Assembly (NCBI GenBank): GCA_002256025.1 | Contig: NKIB01012462.1 | Span: 1 to 64,000, forward strand | Direction of reading: 5' to 3' | From: Asterionella formosa | Taxonomy: Eukaryota | DNA: 64,000 nucleotides | Part shown: positions 1-39,984 of the stretch, piece by piece | Numbering within the stretch: position 1 is the stretch's first letter | Layout of the letters: the number at the start of each line of letters is the position of its first letter | Position numbers and translations under genes: made by a program | The notes under the pieces: generated by a model | Databases searched by the model: none | The model's input: only the letters and a program-made list of their open reading frames with translations | Told to the model about the DNA's origin: nothing

Positions 1-34
1 TTTAAGGCAATGTGAACTGAATTACAGAATTAAT

Positions 35-122
35 TGAAGTATTTCAAATAATTATGTGAAGTATTTCAAATAATTATGTGAAGTATTTCAAATAATTATG
101 TGAAGTATTTCAAATAATTATC
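35..122. repeat. 22-bp tandem repeat, 4 copies (TGAAGTATTTCAAATAATTATG)
   Basis: Read directly; units start at 35, 57, 79 and 101. Confidence 0.95.
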
Positions 123-143
123 TGAAGGTGATCACGTAATAGC

Positions 144-322
144 TATAGTGATGATCAGGAATGCATGCATGATACTCTGATCAAATAATGAACGTGATGT
201 ATTCAGATAATATATAGATATATTCAAGTAAGCATTTTGATGTATTCAACTAATTCATGTGATCCATTCAAAATCAACTAGGCTTATTTACGTGATGGTC
301 ACTTCACGTAATACGCGGCTTA
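144..322 (+). repeat. Dispersed repeat, probable DNA-transposon end; inverted copy at 49144-49322
   Basis: TATAGTGATGATCAGGAATGCATGCATGATA...CACGTAATACGCGGCTTA matches the reverse complement of 49144-49322 along its length. Confidence 0.85.
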
Positions 323-349
323 GATGCACACTAGTGAAGTAGCTACCGG

Positions 350-1235
350 TAGTACCTTGTGGTAGTACATCCAATTTCCAGACAGCTGGAAGATAAGCCC
401 ACCCAACAGGAGCATTTTTGGGCATTGCAACAACAAACTTCAAAATAGTCAGAAATTCAAAACTATAAGCAAGTTTCTTCTTTTTATCATCATCAATGAG
501 TAGGCAAACATTTTTGTAAGTGGATACAAGTGCAAAGAATGCCAACTGATTTCTTCAGGCCGAAGGACAAAATGACTTCATCAACAAGTTGCCGTAATTG
601 TGCTGAAACTAAAACTTGAGCTATCTTTATCGCATATTTAATTGTTTATATAAGCAAAATGACCGGAACTTGCAGGATACTCCATTTCTGTTGGGCGAGC
701 AACCCAGACTTCATCTCAATTCTAAAACCTAGTTGTGAAAGGAAATAGCTAAACGCATCCTTGCTGGATGATTCTCTTTGACTTCCAAAAAAGGGACAGA
801 AGACTTGATCAGCCATTGTAGAAAAGCATCATCTACAATATATTGTCCTGGCTGAAGATTGGCTGTGTTCTTTCAAATGCCTTCTGATCTGGACATTTTC
901 CTGGTGCCACAACACCAAATTATAGGAACAATAGTTACTGTCATCACAAACAGCCAGAACATTAATCCATACAAAATATAATAACCAGACCAATATGCTT
1001 GAGGGAACCCATCATCATAATACATTTCTCTTGGTTTGGTGATAGGCAGTAAGTAACCAGCATCTGTTACACCAATGCATCAATGAAATAGTAGTTGATA
1101 ACTTTTTAAATTAAAATATTTTCATCACTGCTTGTTTCTCTTTGTTTGTTGTGGGGAATTTAATTAATAGTGATGGGCAAGAGTTCACTGGATCAATGAA
1201 CATTTGAGAGATTGTATAAACAGATGACAGTCTAT
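350..1235 (-). mobile_element. Decayed PIF/Harbinger-type (DDE_Tnp_4) transposase, interrupted by a MITE
   Basis: Minus-strand fragments across frameshifts: FIDPVNSCPSLLIKFPTT, AYWSGYY..INVLAVCDD, GVVAPGKCPDQKAFERT, PGQYIVDDAF, GSQRESSSKDAFSYFLSQLGFRIEMKSGLLAQQKWSIL. Confidence 0.75.
585..672. mobile_element. 88-bp palindromic MITE-like element
   Basis: Ends CAAGTTGCCGTAATTGTGCT / AGCAAAATGACCGGAACTTG; homologous to 9166-9302, 9317-9404 and 60419-60438. Confidence 0.75.
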
Positions 1236-13914: not shown

Positions 13915-14475
13915 GTAATAGCCTCGGCTCACCAACTGTTGTACATCATCACTGCTAGTACCATTTTGATTGTTGCATCGCTTGCAACTGGAGCAAATGT
14001 CTCAGTAAAATCGACACCTGCTGGGATTTGCTCATATCCCTTCACGACCAATCTTGCCTTGTAAATGGTCTTCCTGGTTAACAAATTTTCTTTAATTCAA
14101 AACACCCATCTTGTTTTTAGTGTTCGCTTCTTGACAGTGTCACTTGACAACTTTCCACAATCCTCTTGACTGGAAGTTTTCACATTCTTTGTTAATTGCC
14201 TTAATCCACTCTTTCTTGTCTGGTCTTGCCATTGCTTCATCGTAGCTTGCTGGTAATCCTGTATCAGAGGCCAGACTTACGTTGTACACAAAATTCACCT
14301 GTGTATTCTTCATAACTTCCTTCATGTCATCCTCCTTGATAACACTACTAGGCAACTTAGTATCTCCTGAAAATCTTACAATTCCGTATTTGTAGGATTG
14401 AATGATGAGTCCAATCTTCGCATTTCACGTGCCAACTTTGCTTGCTTAGACTGAGCACTTTCCGCAACAAGTTCT
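13915..14475 (-). mobile_element. Ty1/Copia remnant: linker and RT N-terminal part
   Basis: [69 protein letters not shown]; contains stops and frameshifts. Confidence 0.9.
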
Positions 14476-14835
14476 GTCTGCAAATAAAAAATATCGTACT
14501 TATAAGATCAGGGGTATCATACGATATCTGGCACAGAATTTTTCTGTGCATGATACATATTTCGTTATATGCATGATAAATGCATACTATGAAAGTGAAC
14601 AGGCTAAGCTTACTCATAATAATCAAACCACCATATAATTATCAAAACATTATCCTATGATGTATATTCTTTTATCATATACCTATCCTGCCTTATATGA
14701 AGGTAACTCTAATCGAAATAGCTGTTAAAAGTAGGTTGAAATGAATTTTAATTTTACTGTTATATCACGAAATCATTTTTATGTTTCTAAATTTTGTGTG
14801 GTTAAACAGCCAATGTTCCCCTTTTATATTCTTAT

Positions 14836-15050
14836 CTCAATGCTCTTGATGCATGCCTCCCCCAACTCTCTTCAATGCTCTTAAGGATACATGCCTCCCG
14901 CTTCCCTTCAATGCTCTTGAGGATGCCTGCCTCTCCCCCCTTCCCTTCAATGCTCTTGAAGATGCCTGCCTCTCCCCCATTTCCCTTTGATGCTCTTGAG
15001 GATTCATTGCATCCTGCCTTCAAATCTCTTAGTAATGCATGCCTCCCGCA
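14836..15050. repeat. Degenerate 33-39-bp tandem repeat (TCAATGCTCTTGAnGATGCCTGCCTC...)
   Basis: Five to six imperfect units are visible. Confidence 0.85.
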
Positions 15051-16066
15051 GCCCTTCCACTCAGATTCTGAAACTCATCTGACTTCATGCTGCAAATCCC
15101 ATTTCCTTTTGATCCGATTCTCTTTTATCTATTTTGATTTCATCATCATAACAACAATGAGAAGGAATTACTTGCTCGTTAGCCATGTCTTGTTTATATC
15201 TCAACACTGCAGTCCCATTTTAGCATGCTCCACTTACCAGAAATCGATGAACTTTTCGCATAATTCTGTAAAATAATGTTTCAGTCAATGATCACATAAG
15301 TACAAATCAGTATACCGTCCCACCAATGTCATTTATAACTTACAACAAAACTCTTTGATTAAAATTATCCTTAAAGATTGAAAAACAAACATGTGTCAGT
15401 GATGTTCTAACAGTGGCTCATTGATCCAACAAGAGCATTTACAAGTTTTTGGTCGACATTGGTGGTATCCCGCTGAATGCGAAATATGCTTTTGAATTGT
15501 TAGGGAAGGAGGCAATCATTTAGTCTTTGTGAACCCAACAATTGATCACCTTGGCATGTACTCATGACATACCATAGCTAGATTCAGTTCACTCTTCCAT
15601 TTTCAATCCTTGCTTCGAAGCCGCAAGGTTTATCATCATGGTGTGCGTTGAAGCGTCGTTCTTTCAGTTTTTCTTGCTTGTCACAGGGCAGAGATTATCT
15701 TTCATTTCAGGATCGTGTGGTACCGGTAGGCATAACAAGGAACCTCTAAACACATGATTTCAAATGTATAGGCTATTTATACATTTATAAAGATTTGAAA
15801 ACAAATAAATATATACACATAATGTTTATACTATCATCAATTAAGCTTATACATAATATAATTATATACAATGCATGAGGATATCATTGTTTTCCACGAC
15901 CTGATGTACTGTCTTTGAAGTTTTCCGCATCAATTCTTGTACCTACAAGTAAGCAATTTAATTAAACCCCTCTATTAGCGGGAGTCATACGAAAATATTC
16001 ATAGTATGGTACAAATCATATAATATTACCCGGTAGATGAATCGCTCGAATCAATCGTTATGATTC

Positions 16067-16486
16067 ACAGATCATACCTCCTGGTTAGAAATGATTGCCA
16101 ATAAATAAGATCACAGATGACAATTTTTAGCTTTTTTGATCTTACTTTTAACATGAATATATCTTACTACTAAATAATTACAGATCATTCTTTGGTTAGA
16201 TACGATTGCCAATAAAAAAGATCACAGATAACAATTTATAGCTTTTTTGATCTTACTTTTAACATGAATATATCTTACTACTAAATAATTACAGATCATT
16301 CTTTGGTTAGATACGATTGCCAATAAATAAGATCACAGATAACAATTTATAGCTTTTTTGATCTTACTTTTAACATGAATATGTCTTACCACTAAAAAAT
16401 TACAGATCATACTTTCTGGTTAGATATGATTGCCAATAAATAAGATCACAGATTACAACTTTTAGCTCGTTTGATCTTACTTTTAA
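16067..16486. repeat. 111-bp tandem repeat, ~4 copies
   Basis: ACAGATCAT unit starts at 16067, 16180, 16291 and 16402. Confidence 0.95.
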
Positions 16487-16490
16487 CCTA

Positions 16491-17065
16491 AGTACGAGGT
16501 GACATTAGATATCAATGTCACCTTGTTTGTATGAGAACAACGTGTTATTGCGTCCCCTCCATCACCAATAGAAGATACCAATGTCGTCACCTTGTCTGTA
16601 AAAGAACGTGTTGTAGCCCGAGTATGAGGTGACAATAGATACCAATGTCACCTTGTTTGTACGAGAAAGTGTTATTGCGTCCCCTTCATCACCAACAGAT
16701 ACGAATGCCACATTGTTGTACGACTACGTGATATTGCGTAGTACCCTCAATCACCTTTAGATACCGGTATACCAAAGTCACTCCCCAACCCTATTCCTAT
16801 CATGGGCATGATTCAAATTCAAATCAATCATACACATAGTACGTTTACATACAAATATCTGTGCAACATACCGGTATATAGGTGTCAGTATCATGATGGA
16901 CATGATTTGAATTCAAATCAATTGTATGCATACTGGTACGTACGTTTACATGCAGAAAAATTTGTGCTACATATATACCGGTAGGTATCCCGATGATGGG
17001 CATGATTAAAATTCAAATCAATTGTGTACATACGTTTACATACAAAAAATCTGTGCAACATATTG
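16491..17065. repeat. Two further tandem arrays: ~130-bp x2 with hairpin AGGTGACA..TGTCACCT, and ~95-bp x3
   Basis: Units at 16491 and 16621; ATGG(G/A)CATGATT..AATTCAAATCAAT near 16802, 16896 and 16996. Confidence 0.8.
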
Positions 17066-17452
17066 GTACTACCAGGGTACCATGTAGTACAGTAGATGAT
17101 ACAGTAGACCTGGTACCAGTACTCACACACAAGTAGGCTCGAACATGAATATGCACATACCGGTATGAATATCTATCATGTCTTCTAAGCTATAGAATGC
17201 TACAGCAGCTATGTACACATACCCATGTACGACTGTCCTACTCATGCAACACGCATTCAGATTGAGCGGTTGTTGATGTTTGCAGCCAGTAATGGTATAC
17301 ATATTAAAATATATGTATCGATATATATATACATACAATATTCTACATGATGATAAATATTATTCATATTAGATGATAAATCGAATTTATATGATCATAT
17401 GATCGCCATTATAAGATGCATCACACGAATTAGATGTTTTCTTTTTGCAGAC

Positions 17453-17995
17453 GTCAGTCTTCACAATTGGGGTATTGGTACCTGTATCTTCGTATTTGGT
17501 AGTACCAACTTTCTTAGTTGATTGTTCAGTTTTCTTCCCCAATTCTTGCTTGTCATCATCTTCATCTTCATTATCGGATTCTTCTTGAGATTTGAACTCG
17601 TTATAAAAATCGTCATGCAATTCTTCATTATCTTCTCGTACTGATATCTCTTTATCCTGTTGGTTGGTGACTGGTTTGAACATTTTCTCTAGTCCATCTG
17701 TTGGTACATTTGTTCCATGCCAGTCACTCCACTTTATGTCATGTGTATTGACCACAGTATTTGTCTTGTGATTGTACATGCGATACGTATCTTGGGAGTG
17801 GCTGGTCATCTGAGTATCCCAAAAAGACACACTTGATGGAATGTGCATGTAATTTCTTGACACCTTCTCTTATAGTAACCCAACCAACACGTCCAAATTG
17901 CCTGTAGAGCTTGAAGGGCCGCCTTGTATTCGTTTCTCCATAGAACACATCATCAGGACTCTTCTTAGTCACTGAATTCACTGTACTGTTCGTTT
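17453..17995 (-). mobile_element. Ty1/Copia remnant: integrase C-terminal/SH3 region
   Basis: SPDDVFYG, RQFGRVGWV, KCVFLGYSDD, DTYRMYNHKT..HDIKW; frameshifted. Confidence 0.88.
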
Positions 17996-18599
17996 CGTAG
18001 GATTTGGAGTATTGGTAGTCTAACCCTGGTACCGGGAGTGTTTACACGTCTTAATCATTAGTAGCTATGTACAGGAGGTAGGCCCCTCAGATAACGTTAA
18101 AAAATGTACATAAACAATTGTTAATGTATGTAATTAATTTTGATCAAGTATCATGCAGGAACGACCACACCACGATGACAGTACCGCTTCCCGTCTGCTC
18201 AGCGAAGTCAAGCATCGTCGGGCCCAGTTAGTACTACGGTGGGGGACCACGTTGGAATCCCGGGTGTTGTTCTTTTTATTTGCCACTGAACCTTATTCAC
18301 TAGCTGTTCCTGCATTTGAACCCAAGCTCGACGTAGGCATAAAAAAATGATAATAAGTCAGAGTAGTCAAACACACAATTCTTACGATTGCAATATAAAT
18401 ATTTATCGCCGTCTTCTCCCTTTGAACATCAACATAAATCAAGATGGACAAAGTTGATCAGACAGGCAACAGTAATTACAATTAATGATTATTTTATTCT
18501 ACCGGTAGTCATCATCATAGTATTTGTTGTGCACCTACTGTAAATTGTCAAATCATTTCAAAACATCATTGTTTTCAATTGTGCATATCAAAATTTATT

Positions 18600-18800
18600 G
18601 AGAAACTTTGACATCAATTTTCGTTATTAATATTAGAATCATAAAAATAATTCTTTTACCATTGTATTTTCTATGTTGTACTTGATATATCTACCAAATA
18701 GGTGGAGAGTGTTTTGTTCTCAATTTTCGTCATGGTCAAGTCTGAGACAACATAATGCAGGATGCTCCACCTGGCCACAATGATTACACTTAACATAGTG
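18600..18800 (+). repeat. Diverged dispersed repeat; inverted copy near 52000-52200
   Basis: Shared TATATCTACCAAATAGG and ATGGTCAAG..CTG..ACAT.ATGCA.GAT.CTCCA.CTG. Confidence 0.6.
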
Positions 18801-19647
18801 TTGACTGTGTAGAAAAGATTGGCTAAGTTATTATGTACAAGCAACTACGAGGAGGGTTCCCTGGTTTACAGCTGGTAGATGAATGTATTTCTAAAGTGAA
18901 AAAAAGAGAGAATTTTGCTGATGTCTGAAATGATTTGTATTCTGTGCCTAAACCAATAATTGTACATTTCTTTTCCGAAAATTCTCGTAAATTAAACTGA
19001 TTTACACTTTTATTCTTCCAAGGCCCCATCTTAGTACGGTGCCCAAATTACAAAGATTGAGTCGCCCGAATACCTGTTGGGCGTTTAATCTTCGAATTTC
19101 ATCCCTTACGGGCTAAATTACTCGCAAATCTCCCCATTACAAAGATTTATATTCATTTGCCCGAATATTTCGGGGGTCATCCCTGATATTGACCCAATCT
19201 TTGTATTTTCTTGAACAATCTTCGTTTCCCAAAGATTAATCTAAGGGGAAATGAAGATTATCTCCACCAATCAGAATAACGGAAACAATATATAATTGTC
19301 ATCACATTCACTGATGATATAGTAGTCAATACTTCTATAAGCATTATTATTGTCATTATTATTGCATATTATTAATATAATTATTTTTACTTTAATATTT
19401 TTTTATGATAATAATAATTTGTAACATGATCACCTCTGCCAACGCTACTATCGTCAACCTTCCTGGCGCATTATCAACAGTTGGCGCAGCCATGGAAGCA
19501 ACAATGGTTGTCATGGCAACTACCAGCAGCCTTGCCAGCTGTGTTGCGAAATGTATGAGCTGGCTTCTCAGTTCCATTTGGATGTTCAATCTGAACAAGG
19601 AAATCAACAATCGCCATCCAACAACATCTGCTAGCTAAGCAAATAAG

Positions 19648-20780
19648 AATGAAACAACCTCTGGTGTCAAGGCAAGAGTCATGTTGGTGGAAGAAGTTCC
19701 TAACAAACGAAAAACGCATATTAAAATTGGACATGAACACATGGGAAGCAAGACTCTTTCGCAATATCAAATGGTTGGTATGATCTGCACAGGAAAGATT
19801 GCTCCAATCTTCTGTGCAAGGACCACGAGTTGCTTCTACTGGGTGCTTTCTACACTCTATCAACCGGTGCTTCCCATTTGTATGTGTACATTCAAACTGA
19901 CATCTTTAAAGAGGTACACCGCAAATTTTTCATTCACTGGACTTAAAAGTTTGCAGAAAAGAAGGATGAATATGTAAACATACTGAGAGAGGAAGATGAT
20001 GACCAACTGCAACGAATTCTTAATGACTACAATTCCCTTGGGCTTCCAGGATGTACAGGCTCCTCAGTCCATTGTGTGCACATGGGGTGGAATTGATGTC
20101 CAGCCTACTACCAGAAGAATATATTTAAAGGTTCCAAGGGGTATCCTTCAGTTGTATTTGAATGTGGTTTCTGATCACAGTAGAAAGATTGTATTAATCA
20201 ATCAGCTAGCTACCTACAACCAGTAACAAGTAATGACAATCACATATTCAAGTTTGATGCTGCTGTTTCCAATCTACATGATAAAATTTTTTTTCAGGCA
20301 AGAGTGGAATGTGCTCACTGTTGAATCTTCTCTTACTTGCAAAGGCTACTATTTCATTTGTGATGGAGGGTACCTAGGATGGCCGGTGTTGATTTGTCCA
20401 ATTACATACGGCAATGAGCATGGAAAGAAAGCAAGGGCATGGGGTATGATGGTGGAGTCTGTTCAAAAAGATATTGAATGAACTTTTGGTATGTTGAAAA
20501 GTCGATGGTTATTTCTTAAGAACTGGAACAACTTGTCTCGACCTGAGCATATCGAAAATGCGTTCACATCATGCTGTATGCTTCTCAACATTCTATTAGA
20601 AAGCGATGGTTACCTTGACTGTGAAAGTTCTGACACACAGCATATTGCGCATACTGTGTGAGGTGACTGTATGGAATTGCATGTTACTTCACACCGCAAC
20701 TTCTTGAATGAAAGAGTGGCTACCGGTAAACAAATTCAATGGTGGAATAGACTTCAACTACTTGTTGATCATGCATTATG
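19648..20780 (+). mobile_element. Decayed PIF/Harbinger (Plant_tran-like) transposase; convergent second ORF remnant at ~20880-21410
   Basis: ELLLLGAFYTL, EVHRKFF, LGLPGCTGS..CVHMGW, ICDGGYLGWP, VESVQKDIE*TFGMLKSRW, CCMLLNILL; several stops and frameshifts. Confidence 0.85.
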
Positions 20781-34293: not shown

Positions 34294-35784
34294 TTAGAGG
34301 GTTTCTACTTCTTCCTCATGCTCATTCTCCTCCAACTTTGCAGGAAAACCGTCGTCGATCAATTGTTTTCCGGTTGTTCTGTCCACTCGAGGCCACCACA
34401 GTGGCATGTAAGGCAGATATCGAAATTCTTTTCCGCCGACCTTGATTTTATTCGTTCGCGACCACTTTTCACCTTCTACCAATCCTGTTTTGTCCAATCT
34501 CAGTTGTGCCAAGACACAAAACGTCCCCGCAGCCGGCGTACTTACAACTTGCCCAATGGTGTTGCCCCCAGCATCCACCATCTTTTCTCCTGGCTTTACA
34601 TGCTCTTCCATGGCCCGCATGTGCAACTCTGCATGTTCTTGCAACTTCTTCATGTCGCCAGAATCTTCGTCCTTAACTGCTCCCTCTGGCACCTGACCTG
34701 TGAGAACACTCATTAATCCACCAACCGAAGGCATACTCAAGGCTGGGAGGGGAGATCCATTGGTAAGTCCTGCCAGAATGCCATCTCGTTCCTCTTGCAT
34801 TTGACTTGCCGAAATCCACGGCCTTGGAAGTTGAGTTGTCGTGTCCAACAGCAAAACTGGTAGTATTCGTTTTCGTATCGTTCCGGTATGCATCGTTCGG
34901 GCCGTCAATTCTTGTCCCAGATAGCATCCCTTATGAAATGATACGGCCTGCAACCATTCTTGATTGGCCTCTAGAGCTGTTTTGCCGAGCAGTTCGTTGC
35001 CTTCCGCAACTCCCCCCAACTTTCTCAGGACCTCGTACGTGCCCGGGCAAGGCGGAAATACGCTTGACAGCATATTCTTAACCACTTCCGGCCCATGCTC
35101 CATAGATACGACTCGCATGCCGAGAGATGGATGTCGTGGGTCCATGCCCACATTAAAACCTGGTGGAGCGTTCTGCGAGTTGTATGTGCCGTAAACTACG
35201 TGCGACGATATCTCTCCAGTGAGATCCGAAAGCTGCACTTTGGATCGTCGTAGTTGATAGTGCTGCAAATGCTGCATTAATTGGTCTGCTGAATTTCTGG
35301 GAACATCAATCAGATATTGGTTGCCCTCGTCCAATTTCCAAAGCAAGGCGTCTGTGAGAATCCTTCCCTTGTGGTCCAAGAAGCAAGTGGCTCGGAGGTT
35401 CGTGTTGAATTGAATGGGTAGCTCGTCATTAACCACAGGTGGTTCTGGTGCATGTATTGGTTCTGCTGTTTCAATCTGGTCTAGTCCCTTGTGCCACAGT
35501 TGGATGTAGTCATTGGGCGGTTCAGGGGGCTTGAGAAGATCCGACGTGACGAGCCCCTGCAAGTAGGTCGTGGCCCCAGATCCTTGGACGGACAGGATTC
35601 GTCGCAAACCATTTCCCAAGTTCTCGTGGCCTTTGCCCCACAGCATGCCCCACTGTCGGGCCAGTGTACTGGAGGATTGATTCAATTGAGACGCCATTCG
35701 TATCTGGGGGGTAGCTCGGGTGAAGAATGGAAGGTCAGAGTCACTAATGCTTGGAGCATCGTGCGACAAACTATCGGTATTCAT
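34294..35784 (-). CDS. IBA57: IBA57/CAF17/YgfZ Fe-S assembly factor
   Basis: YLQGLVTSD, FLDHKGRIL, DPRHPSLGMR and the signature KGCYLGQELTAR. Confidence 0.95.
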   Translation of the reverse strand: MNTDSLSHDAPSISDSDLPFFTRATPQIRMASQLNQSSSTLARQWGMLWGKGHENLGNGLRRILSVQGSGATTYLQGLVTSDLLKPPEPPNDYIQLWHKGLDQIETAEPIHAPEPPVVNDELPIQFNTNLRATCFLDHKGRILTDALLWKLDEGNQYLIDVPRNSADQLMQHLQHYQLRRSKVQLSDLTGEISSHVVYGTYNSQNAPPGFNVGMDPRHPSLGMRVVSMEHGPEVVKNMLSSVFPPCPGTYEVLRKLGGVAEGNELLGKTALEANQEWLQAVSFHKGCYLGQELTARTMHTGTIRKRILPVLLLDTTTQLPRPWISASQMQEERDGILAGLTNGSPLPALSMPSVGGLMSVLTGQVPEGAVKDEDSGDMKKLQEHAELHMRAMEEHVKPGEKMVDAGGNTIGQVVSTPAAGTFCVLAQLRLDKTGLVEGEKWSRTNKIKVGGKEFRYLPYMPLWWPRVDRTTGKQLIDDGFPAKLEENEHEEEVETL

Positions 35785-36839
35785 TGTGAGTACATACCGG
35801 TAGCTAAGTTAATACTTACATACATATATACCGGTATGTATATGGTAGAAGGACCTGCAGGCTGGAGTACCACCCTGTACGTATGATACGGTAACTGGTA
35901 CCTGGTAGTCGTTGTACATGGTGCCATGATCACCAGGTTCAAAGCATTATTGGACTGATTGGACTCATATTCGAGTCCACAGTCCTCATGACTCGTGACA
36001 TCCATGATCATGATTGATGCTACGTATGACTGACTGGTTAGGAAATACCAGTATCCAATCTTGAGCGATGCTTCGTATGCCAGGTAACCATTGAGACTCA
36101 ACATACATACTGTAGCCACTAAGATATCCAAATAGACCTTGAAGCGACCACGTACGTGATGTGTATGACACGTAATTTACTTATCTTTTAGCTTGTGTGA
36201 TGACGTCGACTCAAGGTAAATGACGTCATTCGATATCACACGACACTGGATCGTATGTACCGGTACATACCGGTAGGAGTATTGCTTTGTATTGGCATCG
36301 TGCTGTACCTTGATTTATACCTAGGTACGGTGTACCTGCGTACCTGCACATTCAAACTGGTACATAGAGTTTCCTTCTAATTATGTTGCTAGGCAATAAT
36401 ATATTACCATGAGATGTGAGTTGAATGGATGATGTACGCATACCGGTACATAAAAGACGGTACCTGGTACATTGGACCAGGTACCGTACTAGTATACAGT
36501 GGATTAGTACCGGTATGATAGTAGTCAACATGTTGTCTTTCTCGTCAGTTCACAAGTAAAAGCATCAATCCTCAATTGTACAGCCATCTGGAGAAAATAA
36601 TACCCGGTAGAATATATATCCTGCATTTCCGAGTACCGGTATACCAGTATATATTTTTTTCTGCACACATTCCATCATTTCCGATTCTTCGTTCATTTCT
36701 TCATTTGGCATTTTTGCTTAACCGTCCATTCCGCCGTCGAATACAGCATACGCCGATTCTCGATTGATTAACGACAGAAGTAACAGCGAAAGAGAGGTAA
36801 TAGTAGAACTTTCAAACAAGCCCACCAAACCCGAACAAA

Positions 36840-39653
36840 ATGAAACATGCGTTCATACTAATAAATGCATTCGCCCTGATGTTGCCCTCCACTGGCGCCT
36901 TTTCAACTCGACATATTACCAATGCAGCCGGACACCCACGAATACGATCCCTCCAGCAGACTGCTCAAGACGAAGACAGCATCGCCCGCCGCTCATTTCT
37001 GGCGGGACTGGCACTCCTGACGATTACCCCGGCAGTCGCCGCTGAGTTGCCCTGGGAACAATCACCAGTCAACAAACGCAGTGGTGTCACCGTCTTTGAT
37101 GCCGAGCGAGATGGGTACACTGTACGATTTGTCACATATTTGTCACGATTTTTACTTAATTTTGATGACGATTGTCAGAGGTGGTGGTATAGTCGAGCGG
37201 CTGACCTTCCGCGACGAGGGACAGCGGCGGAAATCGACGCCATGCGACTGATGCAATTTGGTGCCTTTAGTGCCAGTGTCGAAGTGGGATTGCAAGAGTA
37301 TCGAGGTCCTGATGGACCGCGAAGACTCATGGCGAGTTTGCTACGGAGGTATGGTCCTGATCCAGATAAATTGGTGGAGGAACGTGAGGCGAGGGGACTG
37401 GAACCGTGGACGGAGTCTACTTTGGCGAGGGAGGGGAGAGAGATTAAAGAAGCTAGACGACAAATCGCCTTGTTGATGGGTTTGATAGAGCAGAGGCAGC
37501 CAGTGGAAGAAATTACAAAGCTGCTGGCGGCGATTGACAATGGGGCAATTGATAAGGTGGAGATTGTCGATCCAGGATCTGGATATGCGCCAGGGTATGG
37601 GAGTCCACTTGTGGTGTTTCCGCCACCTGAAGCTGGAGATAATTATCAGCGAGCGGCAGGTAGAGCAGTGCTAAAACCCAATGGAAAGATTTTGAGAATA
37701 GATCTCGTTAACCGAGGCTTTGGCTACGCCAAAACTCCAATTGTTACCATTTCGCCTCCCGCAGCTTTGATGAAGGAACAAGGGAGCAAGACGACCGCAA
37801 ATTCTACCATGTGCACTGCAACTGCCACAGCCTTGCTTTTTCGTACAGGGGTCAATAAGGGAAGAATTGAGCGCATTCAACTGACAGACCCTGGTGCTGG
37901 TTATACCAAGGACGAAACAATTCGCATCAAATTTACATCTCCAGAAATGGCACCTGCTGACGGTGGCACGATAGCAACAGCTATCGCTGTCTTGGAATAT
38001 GAAGTGGGGGCCATTGAAATGACGAATGGGGGATCTGGATATGCGGTGGAGAAACCTATCAATGTCTATGTAGAGCCTCCTCCTCTCACGGCTCGTGTCA
38101 ACATGAATGACCCAATGATGGCACGGATCTTTGCACCCAACGAACCTCTTCCCGCATCAACTGTCCCCACAAAGGAAATGCGTAAAAAAATGCCTAAAGA
38201 CAACGACCCAACATCCCTGGCGGCACGAGCAGAAAGAGATGCCATAAATGATGGTAATGGTGGAGGTGGTGGTTGTATTGGGAGAGCCTGTTATGATCGG
38301 GCTGTACAAGCCGTGGCATATCCAAGAGCCGAGATGTATTCTTACACAACCTTTCAGAATCCAGAAGATACCATGAAGGTGCAAAAGGTGGAAGCTGCGA
38401 TTCGAACACGATCATCGGCTAGTGTACCAACCTGGACGGACACTTCCTATAATCCCAAACAGCCGAAGAAGGTTGTCAGCGCCACAACAAGTGGTCCTGA
38501 AAGTTCTCTACCTTCTCTCCCTTCTTGGGGTGGAGGATCATCCTCCTCCGCACAGCTACTATCCCTGCTGCCTTCTGGGATCGGTCTTGAGTATGATAGG
38601 GTTTTGAAACGATATCGACTGGGATCAGGTGATGGCATGCCAGACTGGACACAAGCACCTTCATCCACCAAACCGTTGGATCCAGAGTTTGGTCCTCGGG
38701 GTAGGTCGCCTATCGAACGTGACATGAAGTTGGGATTCGACACATATCTTCGCTTTTGTGCCTCCGGAGCCATTTGTTGTTCAGCTGTACACTTGGCGCT
38801 TACACCAATTGATGTCGTCAAGACCAAAGTGCAGACAAATCCGATCAAATATCCCGGAGTTATTTCTTCATTCCAGAAGGTTTTGAAGGAAGAGGGGCCT
38901 GGAACATTTTTCACTGGTTGGGCTCCCACTTTTACTGGTTTCTTTCTCTGGGGCGGATTCTCCTATACTACAACTGAATTAATTCGACGATATTTGATCG
39001 AAGCTGCAGGAACGGATGCTTCGGCTCTAGAGGTTCCTATTATCCTGGTAGCTTCCAGCGTTGGAGCCTTTTTTGGATCCTTCCTTATTTGTCCATTTGA
39101 AGCAGTTCGCATCAGAACAGTTTCCCAGCCAGGTTTTGCACCAAATTTTGTGGGTGTATTGAAGAGAATTATTAGGGATGAAGGACTCCTGTCACTGTTT
39201 ACTGCTGTTCCAGTCTTCATGGTAAAGGAAATTCCCTTTGCCATGGCAAAATTTACTGTCTTTGATTTAAGCACAGAGTGGATGTACGAGACGTTTCCAG
39301 CAGCTCGTGAAGATCTCCAACTCTCCTTGTTAGTGAGCTTAATCGGAGGTACTTTGGGTGGAATCACAGCAGCGTTTGTGTCCAACCCTGCAGATGCAAC
39401 AATTTCTGAAATGAAAAAGGCTGCCACAAAGGTGGGTCCTGTCACTTTTGCCAGAATCATTTGGAAGAGGGGTGGACCATCAGCATTTTTCAAGGGGTTG
39501 CAGCTCCGGATGTTTTTCTATTCATTGCTTGTTAGTCTTCAGTTTTTGGTCTATGACTCAGTTCGATTTGCCTTGGGCATTGGATCCGATGACTTGAAAT
39601 TGTACTTAGATGTCCTGGGTGGGGCCTTGAGTGAGAATGGAGGATCTGTTTAG
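36840..39653 (+). CDS. Predicted plastid-targeted fusion: long N-terminal domain with 4 GSGY repeats plus a mitochondrial-carrier (phosphate carrier-like) domain
   Basis: 937-aa ORF; TGA-FST cleavage motif; RRSFL..AVAA; carrier motifs PIDVVKTK, CPFEAVRIR, NPADATIS, KEIPFAMAKF. Confidence 0.9.
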   Translation: MKHAFILINAFALMLPSTGAFSTRHITNAAGHPRIRSLQQTAQDEDSIARRSFLAGLALLTITPAVAAELPWEQSPVNKRSGVTVFDAERDGYTVRFVTYLSRFLLNFDDDCQRWWYSRAADLPRRGTAAEIDAMRLMQFGAFSASVEVGLQEYRGPDGPRRLMASLLRRYGPDPDKLVEEREARGLEPWTESTLAREGREIKEARRQIALLMGLIEQRQPVEEITKLLAAIDNGAIDKVEIVDPGSGYAPGYGSPLVVFPPPEAGDNYQRAAGRAVLKPNGKILRIDLVNRGFGYAKTPIVTISPPAALMKEQGSKTTANSTMCTATATALLFRTGVNKGRIERIQLTDPGAGYTKDETIRIKFTSPEMAPADGGTIATAIAVLEYEVGAIEMTNGGSGYAVEKPINVYVEPPPLTARVNMNDPMMARIFAPNEPLPASTVPTKEMRKKMPKDNDPTSLAARAERDAINDGNGGGGGCIGRACYDRAVQAVAYPRAEMYSYTTFQNPEDTMKVQKVEAAIRTRSSASVPTWTDTSYNPKQPKKVVSATTSGPESSLPSLPSWGGGSSSSAQLLSLLPSGIGLEYDRVLKRYRLGSGDGMPDWTQAPSSTKPLDPEFGPRGRSPIERDMKLGFDTYLRFCASGAICCSAVHLALTPIDVVKTKVQTNPIKYPGVISSFQKVLKEEGPGTFFTGWAPTFTGFFLWGGFSYTTTELIRRYLIEAAGTDASALEVPIILVASSVGAFFGSFLICPFEAVRIRTVSQPGFAPNFVGVLKRIIRDEGLLSLFTAVPVFMVKEIPFAMAKFTVFDLSTEWMYETFPAAREDLQLSLLVSLIGGTLGGITAAFVSNPADATISEMKKAATKVGPVTFARIIWKRGGPSAFFKGLQLRMFFYSLLVSLQFLVYDSVRFALGIGSDDLKLYLDVLGGALSENGGSV

Positions 39654-39984
39654 AAGTGCATTATTGCCTAAACCAAAAAGGGTAGTTTTGGTTTGAATTG
39701 AGCTTGGGAAATTGTGAATTATTTGAAATCCAGAGTGAATGTCCAGCAGGGCCATGATATCCTTGATAGAAAATTGTCTACCATAGAGTGTAACGACATC
39801 CCTTGTTTTGACCTCATGTTGGGAGGTGCTATGATTTATTGAGACACCTCCTCATTCATAGACTACATACTGAAATACTTTGTAAGACATAGTCATTCTA
39901 GAGCTACTGCTTGCCTAAATTTGTATGTAAAAAATTAAAATTGAACTACGGATTTACACATGGAATTTTTATAGCATGGCTTGC

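Follow-up and report, generated by a model that had tools for sequence, protein, structure and literature searches.

A candidate thylakoid carrier of diatoms and haptophytes: an SLC25 protein of the phosphate-carrier lineage behind a twin-arginine-like signal and a large soluble module

The window analysed here is a stretch of 64,000 nucleotides of Asterionella formosa DNA (contig NKIB01012462.1, positions 1 to 64,000), and the locus of interest is a single long reading frame on its forward strand (Table 1). Several in-frame stops precede the ATG, which is the first one after them; the nearest stop lies ~36 nt upstream. Two RNA-library contigs from two runs of one study, which give neither exact transcript ends nor strand, span the frame collinearly and end just beyond it (X1 record 1, 3072 nt, 36677..39748; X2 record 3, 3328 nt, 36563..39890), and a further contig (X5 record 6) extends to 39946. 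The fusion is also encoded by complete MMETSP transcripts of orthologues. The initial annotation had read the locus as one uninterrupted ORF, and a single unit, not two separate transcripts, is what the RNA data support. The gene is a real, expressed and intronless diatom nuclear gene, the orthologue of Phaeodactylum Phatr3_J11866, and its product is, by its predicted features, a plastid membrane protein. Two antisense ORFs (38447..38773 and 38963..39460) lie inside the conserved coding region and are taken as mechanical.

Table 1. Features of the carrier-fusion locus (positions in the window; aa, residues of the predicted protein).
Feature	Position	Strand	Basis or remark
Uninterrupted ORF P0001	36840..39653	+	937 aa and stop
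Approximate transcript span	36563..39946	+	Collinear RNA-library contigs without joints
ER-type signal peptide, aa 1-20, STGA end then F21 (diatom plastid-type cleavage motif)	36840..36899	+	Hydropathy
Transit-peptide-like stretch, aa 21-49, short and basic	36900..36986	+	Length-variable, poorly aligned among orthologues
Putative twin-arginine signal, aa 50-68: RR, F/L-rich start, G/S/T/A-rich hydrophobic core, AVAA	36987..37043	+	
Conserved helical-bundle domain, aa ~85-235	37092..37544	+	AlphaFold2 helices, pLDDT ~90-98
Four GxGY beta-repeats, aa 236-415	37545..38084	+	Conservation and matches to phage proteins
Insert, mainly diatoms, aa 416-500: TARVNMNDP and C479-x-G-R-x-C484-Y-D	38085..38339	+	
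Variable low-confidence linker, aa ~531-566	38430..38537	+	pLDDT <50, poorly conserved
Conserved pre-carrier element, aa 568-627: LLxLLP, beta-hairpin, PLDPEFGPRGRSP	38541..38720	+	
Six-helix SLC25 carrier, phosphate-carrier lineage, aa ~630-912	38727..39575	+	Pfam PF00153 x3
Conserved C-terminal tail, aa 913-937, DDLKLYLDVLGG	39576..39650	+	

The protein is made of six parts, namely an ER signal peptide, a transit peptide, a twin-arginine signal, a helical bundle, four GxGY repeats and an SLC25 carrier with its tail. Residues 1-20 are hydrophobic, with the hydropathy peak at aa 4-22, and the STGA|F junction followed by a transit peptide corresponds to the bipartite plastid presequence of diatoms (ASAFAP type). 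By a crude pattern of our own, a small residue followed by F, W, Y or L is present near the end of the signal peptide in 104 of the 121 homologues with a signal-peptide-like N-terminus.

The third element of the presequence, RRSFLAGLALLTITPAVAA, has the context S-I-A-R-R-S-F-L-A-G ... A-V-A-A in the window protein. Both R50 and R51 are invariant in the diatom alignment (22/22 sequences), and RR with 12 or more uncharged residues precedes the soluble domain in 179 of the 189 homologues with complete N-termini, compared with 21/189 for the same pattern in a control region, 400 aa of the soluble domain further downstream. A separate homologue count gave 173/179; both counts include distant relatives of 28-45% identity. 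Most of the 10 N-termini (of 189) missing the pair look like truncated gene models; Chattonella has RK and Chlorarachnion KKR. The RR motif itself appears to be under selection because the surrounding sequence is otherwise unconserved. The Tat consensus is S/T-R-R-x-F-L-K, and the family consensus, S/N/T-R-R-x-F-[FLM]-[AG]-[SAT], fits it position by position. With a median hydropathy of 1.83, the hydrophobic core is weaker than the ER signal peptides that these proteins carry (2.22), and an A-x-A follows the RR signal in 137/181 cases versus 121/815 control windows. Motif, moderately hydrophobic core and A-x-A site, all features of a Tat signal, can be recognized in the sequence, and the G/S/T/A-rich core followed by A-x-A resembles a cleavable signal rather than an anchor. 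The initial annotation had described this N-terminus as a signal peptide ending TGA-F, a short basic transit peptide and an RRSFL-hydrophobic-AVAA stretch; all three descriptions hold, and the RR pair is kept in diatoms and in other ochrophytes.

Downstream of the RR signal come ~560 residues of soluble sequence, as first described, without hydrophobic segments. AlphaFold2 modelled this N-terminal module with a pLDDT of 84.7 and a pTM of 0.79 (whole mature protein: 84.0 and 0.72). In the helical bundle, F97, R103, L105, W116, Q220 and P221 are invariant across the family. The repeats that follow are centered on GSGY (246-249), GFGY (293-296), GAGY (352-355) and GSGY (398-401), each G-x-G-Y being kept in 82-94 of 95 family sequences. 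The motifs of the insert are invariant across 22 diatom sequences, and the insert is gapped in 20-34 of the 95 wider-family sequences. The pre-carrier element is modelled as strands (pLDDT 85-93) and is strongly conserved (L576 in 93, P578 in 94, G618 in 92 and G621 in 90 of 95 sequences).

The GxGY beta-repeats resemble modules of phage fibres and baseplates. A comparison of this block with BFVD returned 25 matches at E<=1e-3 over ~180 columns, to phage tail-fibre, baseplate and structural proteins; the best had an E-value of 2e-8 and 28% identity over 180 columns, with low TM scores (0.13-0.21). Among solved chains, the weak top VIA matches were phage sheath proteins (T4 gp18 domain I; Z 4.7 and 4.5), and the Pfam family Gp18_dom_I matched the block below its cut-off (E 0.098). 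For residues 66-500 the ESM Atlas gave no more than scores of 0.82 and TM values of 0.28-0.40, to phage proteins, which we treat as leads. In the Pfam search of the whole protein, the N-terminal 630 residues matched no family apart from KH_DEAH11, which was treated as noise (E 0.029, 14.4 bits, below the cut-off of 27), and no EF-hand family appeared at E<=1. The N-module had no match in the sequence search of solved structures; its whole model gave 0 matches at E<=1e-3 with Foldseek against the PDB and 0 at Z>=5 with VIA-align against 48,161 solved chains, the rows for the helical bundle (Z 3-4) being uninformative. Because the searches showed neither a signature of catalysis or cofactor binding nor a match to a solved structure, any role for the N-module is a guess.

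The remainder of the protein is a carrier. Mito_carr (PF00153) matched in three stretches at residues ~630-930 (E 7e-38, 128.7 bits versus a cut-off of 22.3), which confirms the three carrier repeats noticed at the outset from the strings CPFEAVRIR (751-759), KEIPFAMAKF (796-805) and NPAD (849-852). The model has six long helices joined by short matrix helices. Foldseek gave 16 matches to the carrier at E<=1e-3, with TM scores by target of 0.63-0.75 for UCP1 and the ADP/ATP carrier; the 12 listed of these 16 were all UCP1, ADP/ATP carriers or Tetrahymena complex IV entry subunits (TM by target 0.54-0.75). The sequence search of solved structures returned carriers only (UCP1, GGC1, UCP2 and the ADP/ATP carrier, E 3e-10 or weaker), with no phosphate carrier among the matches. 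The SLC25 signature is Px[DE]xx[KR] on helices 1, 3 and 5. It is conserved on helices 1 (P656-x-D-x-x-K661) and 3 (P752-x-E-x-x-R757), and helix 5 reads P850-x-D852-x-x-I855, without the basic residue.

Judged by nearest neighbours and annotation, the carrier belongs to the phosphate-carrier (PiC) lineage. Its ESM Atlas neighbours are the Pic2 and Solute carrier family 25 member 3 clusters (0.94-0.95), and the JGI annotation of relatives names a phosphate carrier. Three Arabidopsis proteins, AT3G48850, AT5G14040 and AT2G17270, which we take to be phosphate carriers, point the same way. They are the best Arabidopsis BLAST hits of J11866, at 32-34% identity, in a supplement table of PMC9546453. 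Behind the carrier, the tail is conserved in most of 89 sequences (D918 in 76, L923 in 73, D924 in 75 and V925 in 75, the remaining rows being mostly gaps), extends to the haptophyte, raphidophyte and chlorarachniophyte proteins, and shows a confident strand (920-923) and a helix in the full-length model.

The architecture is shared across the family. Among the 120 matches listed, 92 homologues were at least 850 aa long and 119 contained PF00153, and 27 of the 35 distant N-domain matches scanned also carried Mito_carr. Named members come from diatoms, Chattonella, Chrysoparadoxa, Prymnesium, Chrysochromulina, Pavlovales, Phaeocystis and Chlorarachnion. Both the fusion, whose presence in orthologues had been a point of the initial annotation, and the RR signal, as recognized by pattern, are conserved in diatoms, a raphidophyte, Chrysoparadoxa and haptophytes.

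Published data on the Phaeodactylum orthologue agree with a plastid location. J11866 is predicted to be plastid-targeted, is co-expressed with photosynthesis and Calvin-cycle genes and is reported to be enriched in a plastid proteome fraction (10.1101/2024.12.16.628690). In the supplement table of PMC9546453 one localisation column gives "Other" and another "chloroplast," and the protein is listed with "No mitochondrial presequence." It is also named among the transporter genes identified by a genome-wide CRISPR light screen, in a passage on the high-light-depleted set (10.1101/2025.09.15.676419). In the papers searched, the location statements concern the plastid as a whole, and J11866 is a catalogue entry (a predicted plastid "phosphate transporter") in which the RR signal, the thylakoid and the N-module go unmentioned. 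The mitochondrial location that the initial annotation had raised as a check is thus not what is predicted or reported for the orthologue.

On balance, we favor a model where the Tat pathway exports the N-module to the thylakoid lumen while the carrier remains in the thylakoid membrane, oriented relative to the proton gradient just as mitochondrial carriers are. The protein would cross the four plastid membranes to reach the stroma, where the N-module would fold before the thylakoid Tat translocase carries it into the lumen. The RR signal would be cleaved after the A-x-A site, and carrier helix 1 would halt the transfer, the other helices then inserting. Both termini of SLC25 carriers lie on the "cytoplasmic" face, which would thus be lumenal together with the N-module and the C-terminal tail, leaving the "matrix" face stromal. 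The carrier would then pass a small solute between the lumen and the stroma, with the lumenal module serving as a lid, a sensor or a docking piece at its entrance. No protein known to us combines an N-terminal Tat signal with a folded domain and, behind it, six membrane helices. Of the original idea of a redeployed SLC25 carrier, the predicted plastid destination, the Tat-type signal and the large extra domain stand, and the thylakoid location and lumenal exposure are what we infer from them.

Other explanations had to be weighed against this model. That the long frame is an artefact, two neighbouring genes or a pseudo-fusion read as one, is extremely improbable: the variable linker is the sole place where a break could hide and gave no support for one, 937 codons run without a stop, single contigs in X1 and X2 cross the whole ORF, the same architecture recurs in complete transcriptome-derived orthologues and in the long homologues counted above, and both halves are modelled at high confidence. 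A mitochondrial or dual location, as for ordinary phosphate carriers, would suit the mitochondrial lineage of the carrier domain, and two other Phaeodactylum phosphate-carrier-like proteins have been suggested to be dual-targeted (10.1101/2024.12.16.628690). We nevertheless hold it to be very improbable, as the N-terminus has an ER-type signal peptide with Phe after it, the usual arrangement in plastid proteins of diatoms, and as both the absent mitochondrial presequence and the reported plastid-fraction enrichment of J11866 speak against it. The protein could, instead, reside in the inner envelope of the plastid or in a different plastid membrane outside the thylakoid, with the RR stretch acting as an anchor or sorting element and not as a Tat signal, and the N-module facing the stroma or the intermembrane space. 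Other plastid SLC25 carriers, the diatom MCFc included, are described as envelope proteins (PMC12645085), the published J11866 data resolve no finer than "plastid," and a polytopic protein after a Tat signal would be unusual. This is unlikely in our judgment, as the motif agrees with the Tat consensus at each position, is kept across lineages that share no other sequence there, and precedes a core and A-x-A site of the cleavable rather than the anchoring kind.

The solute is a separate question, on which the comparison with the mitochondrial phosphate carrier (SLC25A3; yeast MIR1 and PIC2; the three Arabidopsis proteins above) bears. The three Mito_carr repeats, PxDxxK on helix 1 and PxExxR on helix 3 are common to both, and the fusion differs in its plastid presequence, its ~630 extra N-terminal residues and its conserved C-terminal tail. 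In PIC2, His33, Thr44, Gln86, Lys90, Leu127 and Met275 are reported as needed for phosphate transport, Lys90 and Met275 being called important for it (PMC7924939). We mapped all of these residues but Leu127 by a numbering offset from His33 = H651, assuming no indel and using no alignment with PIC2 or MIR1. In this mapping, and among 89 family members, the position of His33 is His in 67 and Arg in 19, and that of Thr44 (T662) is Thr in 87; Gln86, Lys90 and Met275 are not conserved, falling on W704 (W/L/N/S/A in the family), S708 (S/G/A/T/L, never K) and F893 (F/Y/L). The identification as a phosphate carrier therefore stands for the lineage and is doubtful for phosphate itself. A thylakoid carrier with a lumenal N-module whose PiC-derived pocket has been remodelled for another small solute, for instance a metal such as copper or another anion, is accordingly a tentative option, which we consider less probable than not. 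The three altered positions favor it, as does helix 1, which keeps a nearly invariant Cys (C646, 87/89) besides the His/Arg position; Cys29 and His33 on helix 1 of PIC2 are copper-relevant (PMC7924939), copper is a further cargo of PIC2 and SLC25A3, and Thr at mapped residue 44 is the MIR1-type state. On the other side, the mapping consists of offsets, T662 and H651 are states linked to phosphate transport (PMC7924939), every annotation and nearest neighbour names a phosphate carrier and, by our own reasoning, a proton-driven carrier so oriented would empty the lumen of its solute, yet copper is needed inside. As a best guess, the carrier in the thylakoid membrane would export phosphate, or some similar small anion, in a proton-coupled manner.

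Several known systems share parts of this design. The initial annotation regarded SLC25 carriers as normally stand-alone proteins of ~300 aa; this is weakened by the existence of large N-terminal fusions, the EF-hand carriers (aspartate/glutamate and ATP-Mg/Pi) and the green-algal cNMP-binding fusions, in which a soluble domain also precedes helix 1 on the cytoplasmic face and whose clusters are structural neighbours in the ESM Atlas. Unlike these, the diatom protein contains neither domain and has a helical bundle and phage-like beta-repeats preceded by the putative Tat signal. Membrane proteins integrated by Tat include the bacterial tail-anchored hydrogenase and formate dehydrogenase subunits and the thylakoid Rieske protein, in which a folded domain crosses behind a twin-arginine signal and a hydrophobic segment stays; the examples known to us have a single anchor helix or an uncleaved signal, or use Sec too, whereas here six carrier helices would come after the exported domain. 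TAAC (AT5G01500), the green-plant thylakoid ATP/ADP carrier, is of another subfamily (nucleotide carrier) and, to our knowledge, lacks both a large N-terminal domain and an RR signal. It indicates that an SLC25 carrier is able to work in the thylakoid (PMC5948301). MCFc, another SLC25 carrier with plastid targeting, occurs in diatoms and other complex algae and has been assigned to the envelope; it was considered as the same gene and rejected, being Phatr3_J46742, a ~40 kDa protein of another subfamily without the N-module and not an orthologue (PMC12645085).

In plants, PHT4;1 (ANTR1) is a thylakoid phosphate transporter with a proposed role in moving Pi across the thylakoid membrane for ATP synthase, the same function as proposed here for an unrelated protein family. 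As the PHT4 family is reported to be missing from diatoms and haptophytes, or chlorophyll-c algae, the carrier fusions could be a non-homologous stand-in for PHT4;1. A bolder proposal, which we put forward as speculation and think rather unlikely to hold in full, is that chlorophyll-c algae have in this family their missing thylakoid phosphate/anion exporter, and that it is the first polytopic carrier behind a Tat-exported folded domain, its phage-fibre-like module and C-terminal tail docking on the lumenal mouth and gating it by lumen conditions. If so, gating by the lumenal module would adjust, under high light, both the proton motive force and the supply of Pi to ATP synthase.

How ATP supply is balanced against photoprotection is determined by the ion and metabolite transporters of the thylakoid. 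Diatoms and haptophytes carry out a large share of marine photosynthesis, and almost no thylakoid transporters are known in them; the present family spans both groups and has a clear sorting signal that can be mutated. If the proposed topology is true, the known range of Tat would extend to a 60-kDa folded domain with six membrane helices behind it, and a mitochondrial carrier would have found a further use in a second energy-converting membrane, with its orientation to the proton gradient unchanged.

The protein studied here, P0001, is encoded by a single open reading frame of 937 codons (36840..39653, forward strand), which begins at the first ATG past several in-frame stops, the closest of them about 36 nt upstream. 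The initial annotation had described a phosphate-carrier-family protein behind a three-part presequence; every sequence string it quoted was found in P0001, and that observation is borne out.

Features of P0001, in residues of the encoded protein
Feature	Residues or extent	Strand	Basis or remark
Signal peptide	1-20	+	hydrophobic, STGA at its end, then F21
Short basic stretch	21-49	+	sequence reading
RR signal	50-68	+	RRSFLAGLALLTITPAVAA
Soluble part (N-module)	~560 residues	+	hydrophobic segments absent
Helical bundle	~85-235	+	AlphaFold2 model
Beta-rich block, four repeats	236-415	+	model; G-x-G-Y per repeat, kept in 82-94 of 95 sequences
Insert	416-500	+	C-x-G-R-x-C-Y-D motif
Linker		+	disordered in AlphaFold2 model
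Conserved hairpin and G-P-R-G-R-S-P stretch	directly before carrier helix 1	+	AlphaFold2 model
Mito_carr repeats (three)		+	Pfam E 7e-38

Part of the P0001 stretch was contained in 16 of the 18 sequencing runs listed in a survey, 15 of these 16 being recorded as RNA, and 8 runs contained half or more of the words sampled from it. Contigs were compared for four RNA runs out of three studies. One 3072-nt contig of the polyA run X1 spans 36677..39748 and one 3328-nt contig of X2 spans 36563..39890; both are without joints, collinear with the window and end just beyond the reading frame, which is covered by two pieces in each of X5 and X7. Such contigs place both halves of the frame on one molecule in RNA libraries, which is no proof of transcription, strand or exact ends, and they fit an intronless mRNA of about 3.1-3.4 kb. 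The fused protein is also encoded by complete MMETSP transcripts of orthologues. Ten single-position differences between the window and the contigs of the four runs were seen over 36745..39692, and a single base is inserted after 38880 in one X7 contig, 68 nt short of its end. Variation between strains and a slip in assembly are the probable causes.

Two other regions of the window were noted. On the reverse strand at 34294..35784, the neighboring 496-aa reading frame has a match just above the cut-off to GCV_T, the folate-binding domain of aminomethyltransferase (E 6e-6), and a weak one to the C-terminal barrel of CAF17; it is probably a CAF17/IBA57-type iron-sulfur assembly factor. The G+C content falls to 0.355-0.37 within 14001..20000, compared with mostly 0.40-0.50 over the rest of the window, and the GC skew is as low as -0.204 within 14001..16000.

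Plastid precursors of diatoms enter through an outer membrane that is continuous with the ER and are taken across the inner membranes by a transit peptide, and proteins of the lumen use a third signal after it. A small residue followed by F, W, Y or L after the signal peptide is the plastid-type motif of diatoms. Scored with our own crude patterns, this combination was present in 104 of the 121 homologues whose N-terminus resembles a signal peptide. Among 22 aligned diatom sequences, R50 and R51 are invariant, and the rest of the region before the soluble part varies in length and sequence. The pattern of RR and then, within five residues, at least 12 uncharged residues was found in 173 of 179 homologues with a complete N-terminus (179 of 189 once more sequences were added), whereas the same pattern occurred in only 21 of 189 within 400 aa of the downstream soluble domain. 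The six misses of the 179 consist of one RK variant (a Chattonella cluster) and five others, at least three of which are visibly truncated gene models. By position, the family reads S/N/T at -1, followed by R, R, x, F, F/L/M, A/G and S/A/T, which is the Tat consensus. The hydrophobic core is rich in G, S, T and A, with a median best-window hydropathy of 1.83 versus 2.22 in the ER signal peptides that these proteins carry; A-x-A follows the RR in 137 of 181 sequences versus 121 of 815 control windows, and the RR lies a median of 66 residues upstream of a conserved anchor motif in the soluble domain. The weaker core, the A-x-A and the spacing all fit a Tat signal. P0001 is very probably a plastid protein.

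The word-indexed search with P0001 gave 283 matches at E<=1e-3; among the 120 matches listed, 119 contain PF00153 and 92 reach a length of 850 aa or more. Named sources include Mayamaea, Fistulifera, Nitzschia, Pseudo-nitzschia, Cylindrotheca, Epithemia, Attheya, Leptocylindrus, Amphora and others. When only the soluble part (residues 66-625) was used as the query, an exhaustive HMMER search returned 549 representatives at E<=1e-3, 94 of them at <=1e-30. Mito_carr was also present in 27 of the 35 distant relatives scanned (28-45% identity), and the other 8 look like fragments or, in one case, a repeat protein of 3120 aa. In this last protein (P0306, from ENA), 20 separate stretches match the soluble-domain query, with ~31% identity over the GxGY repeat block, and no Pfam family was matched at threshold; the predicted giant protein is made of the same GxGY repeat as the P0001 module. 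Cluster look-up added the haptophytes Prymnesium parvum, Chrysochromulina parva, a Pavlovales species and Phaeocystis antarctica, the ochrophyte Chrysoparadoxa, the raphidophyte Chattonella, the centric diatoms Cyclotella and Thalassiosira exigua, and Chlorarachnion reptans. The fusion is found in diatoms, haptophytes and other algae, and is therefore old and widespread among complex-plastid algae; no land-plant, red-algal or bacterial member was seen among the named matches, most matches being nameless. The complex plastid of chlorarachniophytes is green-derived, and the Chlorarachnion member (P0405, 846 aa), full-length and with KKR where others have RR, could reflect gene transfer between algal lineages. 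Matches of ~45-47% and of ~30% identity to P0001 both come from centric diatoms (P0377 of Thalassiosira exigua, P0394 of Cyclotella, and P0275), and the family seems to exist in two diverged forms in diatoms. Among the supplementary entries of PMC9546453, Phatr3_J11866 (J11866), the Phaeodactylum orthologue, has two Amphora matches, of 64% and 40%.

The AlphaFold2 model of the N-module, built on a 95-sequence alignment, has a pLDDT of 84.7 and a pTM of 0.79. The only residues invariant across the family (F97, R103, L105, W116, Q220 and P221) all lie in the helical bundle; the motif of the insert is invariant in diatoms, but has gaps in 20-34 of the 95 wider-family sequences. Neither Foldseek against the PDB (E<=1e-3) nor VIA-align against 48,161 chains (Z>=5) gave a match to the N-module, the top two VIA-align rows being phage tail-sheath proteins on the repeat block with Z of 4.7 and 4.5, below that level. 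Predicted viral structures gave 25 matches at E<=1e-3 (best 2e-8), of which the named ones are all phage, mostly cyanophage, tail-fibre, baseplate or structural proteins, over ~180 columns at 17-28% identity; a Pfam match to Gp18_dom_I was sub-threshold. In our reading, the GxGY block belongs to a class of beta-repeats that is common in phage fibres, and the helical bundle is a domain with no recognized relative. Nothing suggests an enzyme or cofactor site in the N-module.

The carrier part models as a standard six-helix carrier and matches UCP1 and ADP/ATP carriers with TM values of 0.63-0.75 by target. The Tetrahymena complex IV chains 7w5z_M2 and 8b6h_DV/DS also match it and, because of this match, appear to have the mitochondrial-carrier fold, which would then sometimes serve as a structural subunit rather than a transporter. 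The full-length model (872 residues; pLDDT 84.0, pTM 0.72) ends in a confident strand and helix, the C-terminal tail (DDLxLYLDV) being conserved across the whole family. The Arabidopsis proteins AT3G48850, AT5G14040 and AT2G17270 are the three mitochondrial phosphate carriers. They are the best Arabidopsis matches recorded for J11866, at 32-34% identity, in supplement file 2 of PMC9546453. These matches, the JGI annotation of many homologues and the ESM Atlas neighbors of the carrier (Pic2 and SLC25A3, 0.94-0.95) all point to the phosphate-carrier lineage.

For yeast PIC2, PMC7924939 gives His33, Thr44, Gln86, Lys90, Leu127 and Met275 as relevant to phosphate transport. We placed these positions on P0001 by a numbering offset, taking H651 as His33, and not by alignment with the PIC2 sequence. 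By this offset, Thr44 becomes T662, right after the PxDxxK motif (T in 87 of 89 sequences), Gln86 becomes W704 (W, L, N, S or A in the family), Lys90 becomes S708 (S in 41, G in 18, A in 10, T in 7, L in 7 and K in none of the 89) and Met275 becomes F893 (F in 65 of 89). At H651 itself (38790..38792, helix 1), 19 of the 89 members of the family alignment A3 have Arg. If the mapping is right, the carrier would be of the PiC lineage with a remodelled binding site, and phosphate would then be a first guess as the substrate.

The J11866 sequence in the PMC9546453 supplement has the same SRR-I-L-F-A-S signal and the same soluble-domain start, and the gene is absent from the main text of that paper. 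In 10.1101/2024.12.16.628690 it appears as a phosphate transporter with predicted plastid targeting, described as enriched in a plastid proteome fraction and as sharing its expression pattern with genes of photosynthesis and the Calvin cycle. In 10.1101/2025.09.15.676419 it is among the CRISPR-screen transporter genes, in the discussion of the high-light-depleted set, and is proposed as a malate-shuttle candidate with its being a transporter as the only argument. The words "thylakoid" and "extension" do not occur near J11866 in the searched text of these two preprints, nor do "twin-arginine" and "mitochondrial carrier" in that of the screen preprint. A full-text literature search found no paper tying a mitochondrial-family carrier to a Tat signal. 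Already known are the catalogue entry for the gene, SLC25 carriers of plastids and even of thylakoids, and SLC25 carriers with N-terminal domains; new, as far as we have searched, is the combination of a conserved Tat signal that precedes both a large folded module and a polytopic carrier, that module as such, and the spread across chlorophyll-c algae.

Location, topology, substrate and the role of the N-module are what we infer from sequence. The initial annotation had proposed a mitochondrial-type carrier redeployed to the thylakoid membrane with a large lumenal domain, possibly transporting phosphate or another anion. A thylakoid protein with a lumenal N-module is the reading towards which we lean, with some reserve. 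Residence in the envelope or another plastid membrane, the RR element being unrelated to Tat, would agree with the plastid fraction data on J11866 and is rather improbable given how constantly the RR and its A-x-A recur. Mitochondrial or dual targeting would suit the ancestry of the carrier and is very improbable beside the plastid-type N-termini of the family. An artefactual fusion can hardly be credited at all; the unbroken contigs of X1 and X2 and the transcripts of orthologues speak against it. As to the substrate, the lineage argues for phosphate, which we consider a possible but doubtful candidate, and the offset-mapped binding site for another solute carried at the same thylakoid location, itself a tentative reading.

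In the thylakoid reading, the P0001 precursor would enter via the ER-continuous outer membrane and cross the inner membranes through its transit peptide. With a Tat signal, the N-module would fold in the stroma first and leave it in the folded state. An SLC25 carrier has both its termini on the cytoplasmic face; with the N-module lumenal, that face and the C-tail would therefore be lumenal and the matrix face stromal. The carrier would then present the same face to the acidic, positive side as a mitochondrial one does, and the light-driven pH gradient could move a solute from lumen to stroma through a PiC-like, proton-coupled carrier. Both the N-module and the C-tail are conserved and would lie on one side of the membrane, where they may, at a guess, cap the lumenal entrance or act as sensors there.
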